A stretch of 36,476 nt of DNA. It comes from Gemmatimonadales bacterium. Lineage in GTDB: Bacteria > Gemmatimonadota > Gemmatimonadetes > Gemmatimonadales > GWC2-71-9. The position numbers and the translations under genes are program-made. The stretch is from positions 1 to 36,476 of the forward strand of contig JANMSC010000087.1 of assembly GCA_031388885.1 (NCBI GenBank), written 5' to 3'. The notes beneath the pieces are model-generated. The model ran no database searches and was not told the DNA's origin. It saw only the letters and a list, made by a program, of their open reading frames with translations. Shown piece after piece: positions 7,878 to 28,270 of this stretch. Position 1 is the first letter of the stretch. The number at the start of each line of letters is the position of its first letter.

Positions 7878-9506
7878 CTACGGAACCGGCCTCGCCGCGG
7901 GCACCGCCGCGGGCTTGCGCGGCAACCGCTCATCGCGCTGTGCGGCCTGCCACGCGAACGCGGCCAGCACCGCCGAATTCCACTTCATGTCCTCCGGCTG
8001 GATCTTCTCGTACACGTCCATGTTCGAATGGTGCGTGCGCGAGCTGTAGTCGAGCCCATCCTGAATGAACTGGAAACCGGGCAGGCCGACACCATCGAAC
8101 GACTGGTGATCGGTGCCGCCAGTGTTCGAAATCGTGAGGGTCTTCATCCCGTTGGCGTTGAATGGTGCCATCCACGCGGTGAAGATCGGCGCAACCGCTG
8201 CATTGCCCTGCTGATAGACGCCACGGATCTTGCCGCCGCCGTTGTCGACATTGAAGTACGCCGAAAACATCTCGTGCTCCTTGGTCGGCTTGATGCCGGT
8301 CGAGTCCCGCGTCGCGAAATGCCTGGCGACGTACGCACGCGACCCCAGGAGTCCCTGCTCCTCGCCCGTCCACAGCGCGATCCGGATCGTGCGACGCGGC
8401 TTGAGGTCGAGCGTCTTGAGGATCCGCATCGCTTCCATCATCGTCGCGGAGCCGGCGGCGTTGTCGGTCGCACCGGTGCCTGAGTGCCATGAATCGAAGT
8501 GCCCACCGATCATCACCACTTCGTCTTTCAGCGTTGGATCGGTTCCCGGAATTTCGGCGATCACGTTGAACGACGTCGAGTCGGCCGGGTAGAAGCGATT
8601 CAGCATCTCGAGTTCGAGCGTCACCGGGATGTTGCGCTCGCGCATGCGCCAGATGCGTCCATACGACTCGTAACCGACGTGCACCATCGGCACTTGCGCC
8701 GCCTTGAGGTCGCGACGCGCCCCGTTGTCGGTGAACAGTGTGCCGTCGCCGCCGCGCGCGAGCATCAGGATCGCACCAACACCTTCCTGCTCCATCCAGC
8801 GCAAGGCCGAGGTGTCGGTGGTGACGTTGAAGCGACGCGCCGGACCCGCCCCGCCGGGACCGCGTCCGGCGAAGCTGCTGCCCGGGGCCGGTGGTGCTGC
8901 TAGTGCCATTTCGGCGAGGCGTTCATCGGTGAGTCGCGTGGCGTCGGGGGTGAACTTGCTCGACGGCAGCCCGTTCGGCTGGGTCAGCATGATGAACTGG
9001 CCCGCGAGCTTGCCAGTGTACATCGCCTTGAACGAGTCCAGCGTCATCGCCGTGTCCGACGGCACGATCACCACCCCACCGGTCACCTTGCCGCGTGTGC
9101 CGGCCGACCACGCCCGCGGCGCAGCTTGAACCTGGAAAAAGTTCGGTGCAGTCGAAACAAACGTGAATCGTTCGTTGGCCCAACCCAGTCCAGCCGGCGT
9201 CGACCAGCCCTCGAGGGCGACGTTGCGCAGGCCCCAGCGTTTCATCGTGCTCGCGGCCCAGTTGCCCGCCTTGGTCAGGTTGGGCGACCACGAGAGGCGC
9301 GGCCCGTGGACATCGGTGAGCCAGCTCATGATGTCCATAACCTGGGATCCGTTCATCGCCTCAGCCCGGATCCGGTCGATGGTGGCAACATCGATCGGTT
9401 CCTGGCCCCCAAGGGGCGTCACGAGCGCGGCGGCGGCGAACACAGCGAGACAGCGCGAGCGGATGACGGTCAACGGGCGCGCGCCAGCCGGTACGGCGTG
9501 GAACAT
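7878..9506 (-). CDS. M28-family aminopeptidase (PA domain plus M28 catalytic domain), secreted
   Basis: ...VVMIGGHFDSWHSGTGATDNAAGSATMMEAMRIL...LWTGEEQGLLGSRAYV... zinc-ligand pattern. Signal-like N-terminus MFHAVPAGARPLTVIRSRCLAVFAAAALV from the ATG at 9506. The track ORF runs on through the tRNA and repeats, and that extension is spurious. Confidence 0.88.
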   Translation of the reverse strand: MFHAVPAGARPLTVIRSRCLAVFAAAALVTPLGGQEPIDVATIDRIRAEAMNGSQVMDIMSWLTDVHGPRLSWSPNLTKAGNWAASTMKRWGLRNVALEGWSTPAGLGWANERFTFVSTAPNFFQVQAAPRAWSAGTRGKVTGGVVIVPSDTAMTLDSFKAMYTGKLAGQFIMLTQPNGLPSSKFTPDATRLTDERLAEMALAAPPAPGSSFAGRGPGGAGPARRFNVTTDTSALRWMEQEGVGAILMLARGGDGTLFTDNGARRDLKAAQVPMVHVGYESYGRIWRMRERNIPVTLELEMLNRFYPADSTSFNVIAEIPGTDPTLKDEVVMIGGHFDSWHSGTGATDNAAGSATMMEAMRILKTLDLKPRRTIRIALWTGEEQGLLGSRAYVARHFATRDSTGIKPTKEHEMFSAYFNVDNGGGKIRGVYQQGNAAVAPIFTAWMAPFNANGMKTLTISNTGGTDHQSFDGVGLPGFQFIQDGLDYSSRTHHSNMDVYEKIQPEDMKWNSAVLAAFAWQAAQRDERLPRKPAAVPAARPVP

Positions 9507-9570
9507 GACAGACTCCGATGGAGGGGTGGGCAGACGAGCAGTGTACGCGTGGGGCAGCTGCGCGGTTAGC

Positions 9571-9619
9571 GAGAAGCGAGAAGCGGGTGTCGAGAAGCGA
9601 GAAGCGAGAAGCGAGAAGC
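9571..9619. repeat. Heptamer tandem array (GAGAAGC)2 - GGGTGTC - (GAGAAGC)4
   Basis: Read directly from the sequence. The units stay in 7-nt register across the one diverged unit. The array is preceded by GTTAGC (9565-9570). It is the reverse complement of the array at 9810-9844. Confidence 0.95.
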
Positions 9620-9635
9620 GAACCCTCCCGCTTCT
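9614..9635 (-). terminator. Small hairpin just 3' of tRNA-Ala (7-bp stem AGAAGCG/CGCTTCT, 8-nt loop), built from the last heptamer unit
   Basis: Positions 9614-9620 pair with 9629-9635. The hairpin lies 10 nt downstream of the tRNA 3' end on the minus strand. Its function is not established. Confidence 0.3.
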
Positions 9636-9645
9636 GGCACCCCCA

Positions 9646-9718
9646 TGGAGCGGAGGGGGATCGAACCCCTGACCCCCTGCTTGCAAAGCAGGTGCTCTCC
9701 CAGCTGAGCTACCGCCCC
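9646..9718 (-). tRNA. tRNA-Ala (anticodon UGC), 73 nt, CCA not encoded
   Basis: Minus-strand sequence GGGGCGG-TA-GCTC-AGCTGGGA-GAGC-A-CCTGC-TTTGCAA-GCAGG-GGGTC-AGGGG-TTCGATC-CCCCT-CCGCTCC-A. Full cloverleaf with the G3:U70 alanine identity pair and a TTCGATC T-loop. Confidence 0.97.
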
Positions 9719-9730
9719 CATGCGGGCAGC

Positions 9731-9759
9731 AAACTAGCGGGCTTGGGGCGGGCAGTTAA
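9731..9759 (-). promoter_or_regulatory. Candidate sigma-70-like promoter for tRNA-Ala (TTAACT-N17-TAGTTT)
   Basis: Minus strand: TTAACT (9759-9754), a 17-nt spacer, then TAGTTT (9736-9731). The -10 element ends 12 nt before tRNA position 1. This rests on pattern match only. Confidence 0.3.
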
Positions 9760-9809
9760 GTCCCCGGGTGCTGCCTGTACCCATCCGAGCGGCAATGGCG
9801 AGGGCGGAC

Positions 9810-9844
9810 GCTTCTCGCTTCTCGCTTCTCGCTTCTCGCTTCTC
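9810..9844. repeat. Heptamer tandem array (GCTTCTC)5, perfect
   Basis: Read directly from the sequence. It is the reverse complement of the GAGAAGC array at 9571-9619 and begins 1 nt after the stop codon (9846-9848) of the OMP gene. Confidence 0.95.
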
Positions 9845-9845
9845 C

Positions 9846-10409
9846 CTACAGGCTATACCCCACCAGTACCAGGAACGTCCTCGTCTTCGAGTCCACCCCC
9901 GACGTCAGCTTGTTGAGGTCCGACAGGCCCCAGTTGTAGCGCCCCTCAACCGACAGCTTGCCTCCAAGCTTGATTCCTGCGCCGAGTACTGCGCCGTAGT
10001 CGCGATCCTTGACGGTGTCGCTGGGACAATCAAGCTCGTCCGTCTTGCAACTCAACCGCAATCCCACCGACGGCCCCGCGTACGCGAACGGCTGCAAGCC
10101 GGGAATCGGCAGTGAGACTTTGAGCAGGATCGGAATCTCGGCGTAGTCGAGCCTCACCGCGGTCGACGACGGCGATCCGTCGCCGTTGACTCCTTTCTGG
10201 ACGTACAACAGTTCCGGCGCGAGCCGGAACAGCCCGAACCCGAGCTCGAGCCCGATTCCAGCGGCGAATCCGGTCCGCGTTTCGAAATCAGGTTGCTTGT
10301 TCGACAGGGTCGCAAACGAGACCCCGCCTTTGATGGTCAATGAACCCTGAGCGGCCAGAGCAAGCGGCATCGTGAGCAGCGCGGCAACAACGAGGGCGGA
10401 TTTGCGCAT
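9846..10409 (-). CDS. Outer-membrane beta-barrel protein (small OmpA-like/porin-family barrel)
   Basis: MRKSALVVAALLTMPLALAAQ signal peptide. Alternating hydrophobic beta-strand pattern with G/Y-rich turns (GFAAGIGLELGF..., YGAVLGAGIKLGGKLSVEGRYNWGLSDL). GGAGA RBS 6 nt upstream of the ATG at 10409. Confidence 0.7.
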   Translation of the reverse strand: MRKSALVVAALLTMPLALAAQGSLTIKGGVSFATLSNKQPDFETRTGFAAGIGLELGFGLFRLAPELLYVQKGVNGDGSPSSTAVRLDYAEIPILLKVSLPIPGLQPFAYAGPSVGLRLSCKTDELDCPSDTVKDRDYGAVLGAGIKLGGKLSVEGRYNWGLSDLNKLTSGVDSKTRTFLVLVGYSL

Positions 10410-10495: not shown

Positions 10496-12604
10496 TTATG
10501 ACGTCATCGTCGGCTTCACCACCAGGTTCTCGATGAAAAACTCCATCATCCGCTGGTGGTTCATCGATGAGTGCCCCTGATCCGGCCCGACCATCACGTC
10601 AAAGCTCTTCCCCGCCTTCTGCAACGCCCGGATGAGCTGCATCGCGTTCGACGGATGCACGTTGTTGTCAGCGGTGCCGTAGTAGAGCATCAGTCGGCCC
10701 TTGAGCGAGTCGGCGTAGGTCATCGCCGACCCTGCCTTGTAGCCGTCGGCGTTCTCCTGCGGAATCCACATGTAGCGTTCGGTGTAGATCGTGTCGTAGT
10801 GGTCCCACGCCGTCACGGGCGAAGACGCCGCCGCGGCCTGGAACGCATCGGGGTGGCGCAGCAGCGCCAGTGCCGAGACGTAGCCGCCGTACGACGTGCC
10901 GTAGATGCCGACGCGATTCCGGTCGACATACGGACGTTGCCACAGCGCGCGCACCCCCGCTGCCTGATCGTCCACCTCGACGGTGCCGAGCTTCATGTAG
11001 ATCGCATCCATGAATGCCTTGCCGCGCCCACTGGCGCTGCGCGAATCGAGCGACAGCACGAGGAACCCGTACTCGCTCCGTGAATGTGGCAACGTGAAGG
11101 TCTCACGTGCACCATTGCTCCCTGGACCGGCATACACCTCCACGAGCACCGGATACTGCTTCGAGGGGTCGAAGCTCGACGGCTTCGACAGCATGCCGTG
11201 CAGCTCGGTGACGCCATCTGCGGCCTTGTAGGTAAACAGCTCGACCGGCTTGAGCCCAAGCTGGTTGAACTGCGACATGTCACTGGCGGCGAGTTCGGTG
11301 ACGAGCTTCCCGTTCGCGTCCAGAATGCGTGTCGTCGGCGCGATGTCGTGGGCCTGCGCGACATCGACGAAGTGCCTCCCGTCGGGTGCCATGCTGATCG
11401 TGTGATGGAGCGTCGGATCGGTCAGTCGGCGGTCACGCTTGCCGTCAAGTCCGACACGGTGGAGCTGCAGCTTCATGTGATTGTCGCCACTGCGCGCCAT
11501 GTACCAAAGCACCCCTGCCTTTTCGTCCACCCGCACGACGTTGGCGACCTCGAACGGGTGCTTGGTCAGAGTGGCCAGAAACTTTCCATCGAAGTTGTAG
11601 AGGTAGAAGTTCTTGAAGCCGGTGCGTTCCGAGCCCCAGATGAATCGCTGCTTGTCGGCCAGCCAGCGAATGTCCGGATGGTTCGCGGTCCAGCTTGCTG
11701 GCCAGGCTTCGCGCACCACCACTCGGCACCTGCCCGTCGCGGGCGAACACGCGGCGAACTCCATCACATTCTGGCGCCGGTTGGTGCGATTGACCGTGAC
11801 CTCCCGACCATCGGGCGACCAGCCGACGTTGTACACGTAGTGACCGACCACGTCGTTGGTGAACGATTTGCCATCGCGGACGTCGATCGACACCGACTTC
11901 TTCGCGGCGACATCATACACAAACAGGTCGACCACCGGATTCGGCGATCCCGCCTTGGGATACGCTTCGGTGTCAACCGTGCTGTAGAGCTTGGTCTGGT
12001 CCATTTGCAACAGGTAGTCGGGCACCGGCTTTTCGTCGAAGCGGTAGTACGCGATCTGCGTGCTCGTCGGGTTCCACCACATGGCACTGGTCTGGCGCAA
12101 CTCCTCGCCGTACACCCACGACGCCGTGCCGTACTTGATCCGGTCACGCGCGCTGCCGTCGGTGGTGATGACCGTCTCGTTGGCACCGGCGGTGTCGCTC
12201 ATCCACAGATTGCGATCACGATGCGTGGCCTTGAGCTTGCCGTCAGGTGACACGGCCGACTCCACCTGACGGCCGCGGGCTACACCCGATCCGCCACGTG
12301 CACCGCTGCCCGGTGCAGCAGCAGTGGTAGCCGCCGCCTCGACGAGCGTGCGACCCGCGACATCGTATCGCCACCGCTTCCCGTCGCGCCCGAACTCAAG
12401 CGCCTTCCCCGAATCCGTCCAGGCGAGCATGGAGACGGTGCCCAGCTTGACGGAACCCGGGATCTCCTTGCTCATTTTCTGGAACTGCTCGTACCCAGGC
12501 ATGGTCTTGAGCCTGTCCTGAGCCGAGGCGTCGGCAAGCCCGCACACCACGAACGCGCTGGTCCAAAATCCCGCCATGCGGCGAGCCGCACTCCGCTGCT
12601 TCAT
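10496..12604 (-). CDS. Dipeptidyl-peptidase IV (S9B prolyl oligopeptidase family), secreted
   Basis: DPPIV N-terminal propeller (WSPDG...), then the catalytic Ser in GIYGTSYGGY, followed by YGTADNNVH and GPDQGHS. The ATG at 12604 has an AGGAG RBS, and the product starts with a signal-like MKQRSAARRMAGFWTSAFVVCGLADASA. Confidence 0.9.
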   Translation of the reverse strand: MKQRSAARRMAGFWTSAFVVCGLADASAQDRLKTMPGYEQFQKMSKEIPGSVKLGTVSMLAWTDSGKALEFGRDGKRWRYDVAGRTLVEAAATTAAAPGSGARGGSGVARGRQVESAVSPDGKLKATHRDRNLWMSDTAGANETVITTDGSARDRIKYGTASWVYGEELRQTSAMWWNPTSTQIAYYRFDEKPVPDYLLQMDQTKLYSTVDTEAYPKAGSPNPVVDLFVYDVAAKKSVSIDVRDGKSFTNDVVGHYVYNVGWSPDGREVTVNRTNRRQNVMEFAACSPATGRCRVVVREAWPASWTANHPDIRWLADKQRFIWGSERTGFKNFYLYNFDGKFLATLTKHPFEVANVVRVDEKAGVLWYMARSGDNHMKLQLHRVGLDGKRDRRLTDPTLHHTISMAPDGRHFVDVAQAHDIAPTTRILDANGKLVTELAASDMSQFNQLGLKPVELFTYKAADGVTELHGMLSKPSSFDPSKQYPVLVEVYAGPGSNGARETFTLPHSRSEYGFLVLSLDSRSASGRGKAFMDAIYMKLGTVEVDDQAAGVRALWQRPYVDRNRVGIYGTSYGGYVSALALLRHPDAFQAAAASSPVTAWDHYDTIYTERYMWIPQENADGYKAGSAMTYADSLKGRLMLYYGTADNNVHPSNAMQLIRALQKAGKSFDVMVGPDQGHSSMNHQRMMEFFIENLVVKPTMTS

Positions 12605-26870: not shown

Positions 26871-26884
26871 TCGCTCGAGCTCGC

Positions 26885-26926
26885 GTTAGCCGTTAGCCGT
26901 TAGCCGTTAGCCGTTAGCCGTTAGCC
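26885..26926. repeat. Heptamer tandem array (GTTAGCC)6, perfect, followed by a diverged unit GTTGCAA
   Basis: Read directly from the sequence. The array sits between the sigma-factor stop (26870) and the terminator hairpin. Confidence 0.95.
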
Positions 26927-26940
26927 GTTGCAACGATCAA

Positions 26941-26971
26941 AAGGCCGGTCCTCTCATCAAGGGCCGGCCTT
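26941..26971. terminator. Bidirectional intrinsic-terminator-like hairpin between convergent genes
   Basis: AAGGCCGGTCC-tctcatcaa-GGGCCGGCCTT (11-bp stem including one G:U). T-containing flanks on both strands. It lies between the sigma gene (+) and actF (-). Confidence 0.6.
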
Positions 26972-27001
26972 CTGATTCGTTCGACAGCCTATGGCTACCG
27001 G

Positions 27002-28270
27002 CTAATGCCCCCGCTCTTTCTCCAACGTGATCATCGCCAATCGTGGCGACACCATGGGAAACGTTGCCGCAAACAGGTAGTAGCACAGCAGGAAGAGCCC
27101 AAGAAATGCCACCGCGGGTCCGACTTCGGGGAGGCCGAACACTGGTCCGACTTCGGTCGTGATCGACGGCGTGACCAGCAGGTATCGCTCGAGCCACAGC
27201 GCGGCGAGCGAGATCGAGGCGAAGAGCCCGAGGGTCAGCGGCGTCTTCTTGGGGCCGACACCGAGGAGTCCAGCGAACGGCACGACAAACATCCCGAGGA
27301 ACACAGCGGCTCCCACCGGGCGCCACGGCCCCCAGAGCCGCGAGAAGACGAAGCCCGTCTCCTCCGGCAGGTTGCCGTACCAGATGACCAGGTACTGAGC
27401 CCACATCAGGTAGGCCCAGAAGACCGTAAACCCGAAGCAGAGCTTGCCGAGGTCATGGCGTTGCTTGGGCGAGATGAACTCGGCCAGACCAACCGCCTTG
27501 CGGCTGTGCAGCAACAACAGGGCGAGCATCATGTGGGCGCCGAGGAATGAGCCCATGAAGAACCAGCCGCCAAACAGGTTCGAGAACCAGTGTGGTTGGA
27601 GCGCCATGATACCGTCGAACGCGACCATCGTAAACACCAGCGCATAGGTCGCGACAAAAATCGGCGCGAGGCGATAGGTCGATGCGTGCGTGCGCGCCGC
27701 ATCAAAGCCATCGAGCATCCGGTTGTATCGCGCAAGGCGCGCGCCGCTCACATGCGGACGCGCGTCTTCGAGGTCCGGGAGCACATCCGCACGCACCAGG
27801 CGGTAACCCAGCCAATAGAGGAAGCTGAGCCCACCAAGCAACCGGACACTCATCCAGGTGCGCGAGAGCCAGAGCTGCTTGCCGGGCGACAACCCGTGCA
27901 GCTCTTCCTGCATGTGGCCGTAGATATCGTGGTAGCCCAGTGTCAGGATGAGTACGAGGCCGAGCAGTGACATCGGGACAAACGCGATGGCGGCTTGGGA
28001 AAGTCGCAGGATCACGCCCGACCACTTGGCGTTGGTGACCTTGTGCACCGCCGTGATCGCCAGCGAACCCCCGGTGATGCTGGTCCAGAAAAGCCAGTTG
28101 ACGTGAAACGCCTGCCACGCGCGGTGGCTGCCTTCCCCGAGCAGCGCGACGACGAAGACCACTGCTCCCGCGGCGGCGAACACCGCACCGGCGAGGAAGA
28201 ACGACCGATACTGGCCGGTCACGCTCCGCTCCGCCAGGCGACGGCGGAGGTCGACGAAATCGGTCGCCAT
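27002..28270 (-). CDS. actF: Alternative complex III subunit ActF (NrfD/PsrC-like polytopic membrane subunit)
   Basis: Multi-TM protein paralogous in style to ActC and last gene of the operon. The ATG at 28270 shares one base with the actE TGA. Confidence 0.85.
   Translation of the reverse strand: MATDFVDLRRRLAERSVTGQYRSFFLAGAVFAAAGAVVFVVALLGEGSHRAWQAFHVNWLFWTSITGGSLAITAVHKVTNAKWSGVILRLSQAAIAFVPMSLLGLVLILTLGYHDIYGHMQEELHGLSPGKQLWLSRTWMSVRLLGGLSFLYWLGYRLVRADVLPDLEDARPHVSGARLARYNRMLDGFDAARTHASTYRLAPIFVATYALVFTMVAFDGIMALQPHWFSNLFGGWFFMGSFLGAHMMLALLLLHSRKAVGLAEFISPKQRHDLGKLCFGFTVFWAYLMWAQYLVIWYGNLPEETGFVFSRLWGPWRPVGAAVFLGMFVVPFAGLLGVGPKKTPLTLGLFASISLAALWLERYLLVTPSITTEVGPVFGLPEVGPAVAFLGLFLLCYYLFAATFPMVSPRLAMITLEKERGH

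Follow-up and report, generated by a model that had tools for sequence, protein, structure and literature searches.

The 36,476-base contig JANMSC010000087.1 (GCA_031388885.1), which comes from the metagenome assembly of a Gemmatimonadales bacterium and was analysed here in its entirety as "the window", carries a tRNA-Ala(UGC) gene enclosed by two tandem arrays of the heptanucleotide GAGAAGC in opposite orientation. Here we report that these arrays are an inverted pair of heptanucleotide simple sequence repeats (SSRs), a known and unexplained class, to which they add a new unit and which they extend to the phylum Gemmatimonadota. Their unusual feature is that they bound a tRNA cassette that has been flipped since the divergence from relatives about 90% identical. 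We think it probable that an inverted repeat pair born by slippage served as the substrate for homologous inversion of this cassette.

The tRNA gene and its flanking arrays

On the plus strand, positions 9571-9619 read (GAGAAGC)2-GGGTGTC-(GAGAAGC)4 and positions 9810-9844 read (GCTTCTC)5 (Table 1). On the minus strand, the left array appears in the sense of the tRNA and of the M28 peptidase gene as (GCTTCTC)4-GACACCC-(GCTTCTC)2, and the right array appears in the sense of the outer-membrane protein gene (OMP) as (GAGAAGC)5. An initial annotation, made from the letters of the window, had placed two such arrays around a tRNA-Ala(UGC) gene, and inspection of the sequence, Tandem Repeats Finder, ARAGORN and Rfam all agree with it. 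It had also described the arrays as exact reverse complements; a repeat search of the window found the arms 9592-9621 and 9815-9844, 193 nt apart, to be 100% complementary over 30 nt. A pattern of two units with at most two mismatches has eight matches in the window, all of them inside the two arrays, against a mean of 0.25 in shuffled sequences, where eight matches were reached in 0 of 100 shuffles.

The OMP, tRNA-Ala and M28 genes all lie on the minus strand, in the order OMP stop codon (9846-9848), (GAGAAGC)5, 91 nt, tRNA, 26 nt containing one AGAAGCG, (GCTTCTC)4-GACACCC-(GCTTCTC)2 and M28 leader. The right array is separated from the OMP stop codon by 1 nt, as first observed in the initial annotation, and the M28 leader (9507 to about 9567) is homologous in alignment to the leaders of related genes. 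The single AGAAGCG is a lone inverted unit at 9629-9635 that pairs with the first unit of the left array, and the two form the 7-bp local hairpin that had been pointed out at 9614-9635 and is present in the sequence. The left array is identical in an independent assembly, L159, which is 99.66% identical to the window, and it is therefore not an artefact of one assembly.

Scans for promoter and terminator consensus sequences gave no match at either array locus of the window, and no consensus terminator was found in scans between OMP and the tRNA. A sigma-70 consensus scan of the region upstream of the tRNA gave no match either; we infer promoter function for 9719-9767. The initial annotation saw neither an integrase nor an att-like duplication, and our searches concur: no recombinase or integrase was found among the neighbouring genes scanned with Pfam (OMP, M28 peptidase, DPP-IV, rotamase and others), nor a second copy of the tRNA 3' end in the window, even with 3 mismatches. 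The same Pfam scan argues against an invertible switch of the Hin, Gin or Fim type, which would have a recombinase gene within or beside the invertible segment.

Table 1. Positions of the genes, repeats and other elements at the two array loci of the window
Feature	Position	Strand	Evidence and remarks
M28 family peptidase gene	7878-9506	minus	Pfam Peptidase_M28; gene call P0001
Left heptamer array	9568-9621		Tandem Repeats Finder: period 7, 7.7 copies, divergent unit GGGTGTC at 9585-9591; between tRNA trailer and M28 leader
Local hairpin 3' of tRNA	9614-9635	minus	Repeat search: AGAAGCG at 9614-9620 pairs with CGCTTCT at 9629-9635, 8-nt loop
Minimal block inverted relative to both flanking genes	9643-9767		BLAST and alignment with L165 (OMP side), L161 and L160 (M28 side)
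tRNA-Ala(UGC)	9646-9718	minus	ARAGORN; Rfam RF00005, 67.9 bits; CCA not encoded
Conserved region upstream of tRNA	9719-9767	minus	Alignment and BLAST; promoter-like CTTAAC-18 nt-TAGTTT
Spacer, promoter region to right array	9768-9808		41 nt; without clear homologue in relatives
Right heptamer array	9809-9844		Tandem Repeats Finder: period 7, 5.1 copies, 100% matches
Outer-membrane beta-barrel protein gene (OMP)	9846-10409	minus	Pfam OMP_b-brl_2, E=1.6e-19; gene call P0125
Second array locus	26884-27009		Tandem Repeats Finder and sequence: (CGTTAGC)6.6 at 26884-26929, starting 13 nt after the stop codon of an ECF sigma gene

Inversion of the tRNA block and turnover of the arrays in relatives

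With either OMP or M28 as the reference, the tRNA block of the window and of L159 is inverted compared with other close relatives. On the OMP side, BLAST matches positions 1-1033 of the relative L165 to window positions 10879 to 9847, and its positions 1175-1298 to 9643 to 9766, in the reversed direction. On the M28 side, positions 804-1080 of L161 match 9585 to 9310, and 672-794 match 9646 to 9767, again reversed. Across 9643-9767, the block of tRNA plus promoter region is 96% identical in L165 and 90% identical in L161, and the alignment shows CTTAAC-18 nt-TAGTTT unchanged in place and direction beside the tRNA in every relative. Little besides the arrays lies in the two junction intervals, 9586-9642 and 9768-9845. 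Among the roles that the initial annotation had considered, a recombination substrate able to invert the tRNA segment gains support from this arrangement, with the tRNA block in the opposite orientation in relatives and arrays at both junctions.

Among closer relatives, the arrays themselves also differ. In L165 (OMP 90% identical in amino acids, DPP-IV/OMP region 87% in nucleotides) the tRNA-Ala points towards OMP. The OMP stop codon is followed after 4 nt by roughly four copies of TCGACAG, then by a GC-rich terminator hairpin of 12 bp and roughly five copies of CTGTCGA that abut the tRNA 3' end (L165 1035-1177). The region of this pair folds with z = -7.14. A different heptamer pair thus follows the OMP stop codon in L165, so the site is fixed while its unit sequence turns over. 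In L161, a fragmentary cluster member with 91% nucleotide identity, the tRNA and its promoter lie on the strand opposite M28, and TTCGCTTCTCGCTTCTCGC, an array of 2.6 units, stands between the promoter and the M28 leader, where the window has its left array. The tRNA of L160 (84% nucleotide identity) is likewise on the strand opposite M28, with no array. In L159, the left array and the 3' part of the tRNA are identical to those of the window. Another fragmentary cluster member, L162, gave no usable information.

Loci whose M28 is 78-82% identical at the protein level were compared as well: what lies downstream of M28 is conserved, and the upstream neighbours differ in every relative. The tRNA-Ala lies 100-130 nt upstream of M28 on the opposite strand in L117, L123 and L124, lies upstream on the same strand in L126 and is absent from L118-L122, and none of these loci has arrays. 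Throughout L117-L126, genes for rotamase, SOD, AhpC, a two-component system and TonB/ExbBD are syntenic downstream of M28, with a recurrent break of synteny at the tRNA. The arrays at this locus are recent and unstable, being absent, shorter or made of another unit in close relatives. The series at the M28-side junction of seven units in the window, 2.6 in L161 and none in L160, L117, L123 and L124, together with another unit at the post-stop site of L165, supports the earlier suggestion of a slippage-prone locus variable in copy number. A metagenome scan with the OMP protein returned relatives of at most 51% identity in the best segment, or 47% for matches covering most of the protein, and their loci had no relevant arrays; none of the 13 that were scanned contained a tRNA.

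Several contigs from this locus end or change abruptly. In L159 (GCA_031407795.1, JANOIP010000485.1), lower-GC unrelated sequence at positions 1-111 replaces the first 27 nt of tRNA-Ala; the join falls in the anticodon stem, and ARAGORN calls no tRNA. Two origins are conceivable for this break: a metagenome chimera joined at a conserved stretch of tRNA sequence, or an element integrated in the tRNA, whose junction it would mark. The contigs L163 (1744-1750) and L164 (1194-1200), from different samples, both end 7 nt past the OMP stop codon (TAGaaaacgg), which would be expected if a repeat, or a junction that varies between strains, interrupted assembly there.

A dispersed class of heptanucleotide arrays

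The initial annotation was made without knowledge that this architecture belongs to a dispersed and already described class of heptamer arrays, which often form convergent pairs and lie beside stop codons. A scan for (GAGAAGC)3 in one genome per species returned at least 116 blocks (L001-L116), none of those listed being from the genome of the window; the class counts that follow rest on the matches listed. About 31 of these come from metagenome-assembled genomes (MAGs) of Gemmatimonadales or other Gemmatimonadota, with up to eight blocks in one Gemmatimonadota MAG, and the others from Vibrio, Photobacterium, Pseudoalteromonas, Acidobacteriota, Planctomycetota and Bacteroidota. Isolate genomes of Vibrio, Bryocella and Neorhodopirellula also carry such arrays. 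Perfect arrays of other units within these blocks are mainly of period 7, with 60 instances against 12 of period 4, seven of period 8 and four of period 6, an excess that points to a process specific to heptamers. GAGAAGC itself need not be a special unit: viral contigs contain 11 stretches of (GAGAAGC)3 against 8, 9 and 8 for three heptamers of equal composition, and the idea that it is universally special was dropped as unsupported.

The order (GAGAAGC)n-spacer-(GCTTCTC)m is frequent in Gemmatimonadales blocks (L002, L007, L009, L089, L090, L094, L096, L110, L047, L053 and L054), and inverted pairs with other units are present as well. Pairs with reverse-complementary units, from other genomes and mostly from Gemmatimonadales, have a pronounced polarity, 18 of 19 leading with the purine-rich arm; counting pairs with non-matching units too, this arm leads in 26 and comes second in three. 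Spacers range from 10 to 187 nt, nearly all fold into a hairpin and most are unlike one another in sequence, and the arms of some pairs are very unequal in length. A weak sharing of spacers was seen in three pairs, where two pairs of one genome have a similar core, GGGATCTTCCCGCC, and a second genome has a related one. In L002 (6625-6793), a hairpin of about 130 nt, nearly perfect, forms the spacer of a GAGAAGC pair; it has GTCATCCCGAGCG-type sequence, resembling repetitive extragenic palindromic (REP)-like repeats, and sequence similar to this hairpin follows arrays in L099 and L053.

Placement relative to genes also follows a strong rule. Among 167 arrays (those of the matches listed plus the window), 56 have the stop codon of a long open reading frame within 12 nt upstream when read in the GAGAAGC, or purine-rich, sense, against 10 in the opposite sense, and the distance from stop codon to array in the purine-rich sense is mostly -2 to +7. 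The rule holds for solitary arrays (38 against 8) and in separate groups (27 against 4 in Gemmatimonadota, 14 against 0 in Gammaproteobacteria). It explains the polarity of pairs between convergent genes and the position of the right array after the OMP stop codon. The fold energies of 60-nt flanks of solitary arrays showed no asymmetry, and the view of arrays as expanded terminator flanks was accordingly left unsupported for solitary arrays.

An association with tRNA genes is not part of this pattern. The initial annotation had proposed scanning the genome for such arrays and recording their positions relative to tRNA and sRNA genes; in other genomes the same unit does recur, but no tRNA link emerged. 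None of the 19 other inverted pairs with matching units that were examined encloses a tRNA or other RNA gene, and compared with the matches listed, only the window has a tRNA between two arrays. The array-bearing blocks hold nine tRNAs in 828 kb, a density that we judge ordinary, and a general link between arrays and tRNAs was rejected for this lack of enrichment. In an Aeromonadaceae MAG (L019 3705-3870), a tRNA-Cys is followed after 14 nt by a long (TCGCTTC)n array running to the contig end, with no partner array visible; its polarity is that of the array after tRNA-Ala in the window.

The window itself holds a second instance of the array architecture, without a tRNA, at 26884-27009. After its (CGTTAGC)6.6 array come the palindrome CGTTGCAACG, which makes a GC-rich hairpin of 12 bp, and then two degenerate inverted units lying directly against the stop codon (27002-27004) of a convergent gene. 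The whole region folds as one long hairpin with z = -7.46.

Predicted structure of read-through RNA

A 296-nt RNA reading through the locus (9555-9850, minus strand) is predicted to fold into a stem of at least 30 bp that encloses the tRNA (-159.5 kcal/mol, z = -5.07), a stability matched by 0 of 200 shuffles. The duplex of 28 bp or more that had been anticipated for such a transcript is therefore recovered in the fold. The tRNA trailer is predicted to form a hairpin that also pairs GGGUG with CACCC of the odd unit (-33.2 kcal/mol), with z only -1.58, and the tRNA's own transcript may thus end, in terminator-like fashion, in a hairpin and pyrimidine-rich repeats. The stem in OMP read-through RNA is a plausible substrate for RNase III or a plausible transcriptional insulator. 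Such an effect is probably incidental, because the stem is absent in relatives, a promoter-like region lies inside the bracket and other pairs enclose only hairpins. The processing stem considered in the initial annotation is thus physically possible, in that the RNA folds, but a dedicated stem of the RNase III type finds no support, given the lack of arrays beside the same tRNA in relatives.

Origin of the inverted cassette

We propose that heptamer arrays arise and change length through replication slippage, and that recombination between two of them inverted the tRNA block. Read in the sense of OMP, the ancestral locus would have consisted of the OMP stop codon, (GAGAAGC)n, the loop AACCCTCC, one CGCTTCT and the tRNA with its promoter, pointing to OMP, followed by about 41 nt, (GCTTCTC)m and the M28 leader. 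The first part of this ancestor would be the usual array-loop-array hairpin past a stop codon, as in L165, L110 and L054, and its second array would be the short form seen in L161. A single homologous exchange between the inverted arrays would flip the 187-bp interior and yield exactly the present order, and the orphan AGAAGCG with its 8-nt loop beside the left array would be the expected leftover of such an exchange.

Several points weigh against this proposal. No relative was found that combines the opposite tRNA orientation with GAGAAGC arrays on both sides. Beyond the 3' end of its tRNA, L161 has another gene, AhpC, which means that further rearrangements have occurred at this locus, and synteny breaks upstream of M28 in every relative. 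The polarity rule alone could place inverted arrays at both sites after an unrelated inversion, and a repeat of 30 bp is near the lower limit for RecA-dependent exchange. The portion of the genome covered is 36 kb, with one GAGAAGC pair and one CGTTAGC array, and both the inversion mechanism and the RNA effects are deduced from sequence.

The strongest competing explanation is that the inversion, or a larger rearrangement at this tRNA-linked break of synteny, came about by an unrelated route and that arrays were then born independently at the new junctions, their mutual orientation being set by a polarity rule under which stop codons are followed by the GAGAAGC sense and structured elements by GCTTCTC. 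Polarity and stop-codon placement both follow strong rules of general reach, the presence of unrelated units at the same post-stop site in close relatives indicates that de novo birth is frequent, the partnerless GCTTCTC-type array 14 nt beyond tRNA-Cys in L019 fits the second half of the rule, and the locus is rearranged in every relative. We nevertheless regard this course of events as unlikely, given that L161 has the M28-side array while keeping the other tRNA orientation, that the junction intervals hold little besides arrays, and that exchange between the arrays accounts more simply for the orphan unit and its loop. A selected RNA device, in which RNase III cuts the stem of an OMP-tRNA-M28 co-transcript to free the tRNA precursor and split the mRNAs, would draw on the fold described above, on the position of all three genes on one strand and on scans that show no consensus terminator between OMP and the tRNA. 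It appears improbable to us: the tRNA-Ala stands beside M28 without arrays or equivalent stems in L117, L123, L124, L126 and L160, and array length or unit differs in relatives about 90% identical. Moreover, with the conserved promoter-like region placed within the bracket, the 5' arm would be missing from the main transcript of the tRNA, none of the other inverted pairs examined encloses an RNA gene, and the stem is made of perfect repeats, for which covariation cannot be assessed.

Repeated use of one unit across many loci of a single genome, in as many as eight blocks of one Gemmatimonadota MAG, and the sharing of the core GGGATCTTCCCGCC between two pairs of one genome, with a related core in another, would also be expected if array, core and inverted array together formed a small mobile element, comparable to miniature inverted-repeat transposable elements or REP-like sequences, that inserts by stop codons or terminators and here captured or landed around a tRNA. 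This is very improbable in view of spacers that vary from 10 to 187 nt and are mostly unlike in sequence, of the very unequal arms of some pairs and of array ends that coincide with stop codons, with no target-site duplications or fixed ends seen; the interior here, moreover, is the ancestral tRNA and promoter, found at the same locus in array-free relatives. It is scarcely credible, finally, that the arrangement reflects faulty assembly or mere coincidence, or that it marks where a genomic island targeted to the tRNA was joined. The contig does come from a metagenome assembly, L159 is broken inside this very tRNA, and tRNA genes are common sites of island integration. Yet the left array is identical in an independent assembly, similar arrays are found in isolate genomes of Vibrio, Bryocella and Neorhodopirellula, the repeat count was reproduced in 0 of 100 shuffles, and neither an integrase among the Pfam-scanned neighbours nor a duplicate of the tRNA 3' end in the window was detected.

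Inversion by exchange between slippage-born arrays, the explanation that we prefer, would account for the orientation of the cassette; stop-codon placement and a strand polarity fixed in several phyla, which pose the more interesting question, are left unexplained, as are the reuse of one unit across a genome and the replacement of units at one site. One speculative answer, doubtful as it stands, is that the arrays are not neutral debris, that a gene-end process makes or maintains them, and that paired arrays let small cassettes flip repeatedly in populations. Such a process could be a termination- or R-loop-coupled mechanism favouring the purine-rich sense strand, or could involve a trans-acting factor that recognises the repeat in 3' untranslated regions. 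The rule of stop codon and strand polarity, measured in several phyla, makes the origin of the arrays testable, and the close relatives provide a natural series of no array, 2.6 units, seven units and a different unit at one site. Here a microsatellite pair coincides with both junctions of an inversion of about 190 bp that carries a tRNA gene. If the mechanism is confirmed, short SSR pairs can drive very small structural rearrangements, and such pairs should be read with caution where they resemble RNA processing signals, which they are not to be taken for.

Comparison with known systems

The closest counterpart to the arrays described here is the (GGGAATC)n family of Xanthomonas campestris and X. 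axonopodis, in which a genome has about 185 heptamer arrays, about 90% of them intergenic, and convergent inverted pairs number 70-75 (Rehm et al. 2015, PMC4692102). These arrays strongly tend to sit at, or to overlap, the point where the upstream open reading frame stops, a tendency for which no explanation was offered; array length differs between related species, and the singular or inverted-pair type is usually preserved between two species (PMC4692102). Ours are similar in having a 7-nt tandem unit in few copies, an intergenic position by a stop codon, convergent pairing and a length that varies between relatives. Recurrence of one unit within a genome was seen in other Gemmatimonadota MAGs, and the 36 kb of the window contain one GAGAAGC pair. 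They differ in phylum and in a unit, GAGAAGC, that cannot form a G-quadruplex. The pair in the window, in addition, encloses a tRNA and its promoter in a block inverted relative to relatives, neither of which is reported in PMC4692102.

Earlier work, as cited in that paper, found an excess of heptameric SSRs in many bacteria and suggested that they stem from polymerase slippage; cyanobacteria have three tandem heptanucleotides in Calothrix PCC7601 and a few paired inverted arrays in Nostoc PCC7120 (PMC4692102). Like our arrays, the cyanobacterial ones are dispersed intergenic tandem heptamers of unknown function, and the heptamer-specific over-representation matches what we see at the loci studied here. 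The units and the phylum differ, and no link to tRNAs or inversions is described for them. These cyanobacterial repeats go by the name STRR, and the unit in Nostoc PCC7120 is GGGGA(C/T)T. Direct repeats of TAACTGA occur in Beggiatoaceae, Cyanobacteria and Bacteroidetes, in intergenic positions just upstream of start codons; nearly all are direct, and one indirect repeat was reported (MacGregor 2015, PMC4679880). They share with our arrays the presence of an identical intergenic tandem heptamer in distant phyla and a position-specific placement relative to genes. TAACTGA, however, contains the stop triplets TAA and TGA and precedes starts, whereas the arrays here are stop-free, follow stop codons and are often paired. 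Function is unknown for the Xanthomonas, cyanobacterial and TAACTGA repeats alike. Literature searches for the GAGAAGC repeat found no bacterial report, and no mention of heptamers or 7-bp repeats was found in a 2025 survey of short tandem repeats.

At the RNA level, the nearest comparison is with the RNase III stems of rRNA operons, which flank 16S and 23S rRNA, are conserved and co-transcribed, and show covariation. The predicted read-through fold similarly pairs sequences 5' and 3' of a stable RNA in a duplex of more than 20 bp; the arms in the window, in contrast, are perfect microsatellites that are absent in relatives, with a promoter-like region inside the bracket. As to rearrangement, chromosomal inversions occur by homologous recombination between inverted rRNA operons or copies of insertion sequences. 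The locus described here agrees with these in having a segment between inverted identical sequences, both orientations among relatives and no dedicated invertase, and departs from them in scale: its repeats are microsatellites of 30-50 bp, and the flipped segment, of about 190 bp, carries a single tRNA gene.

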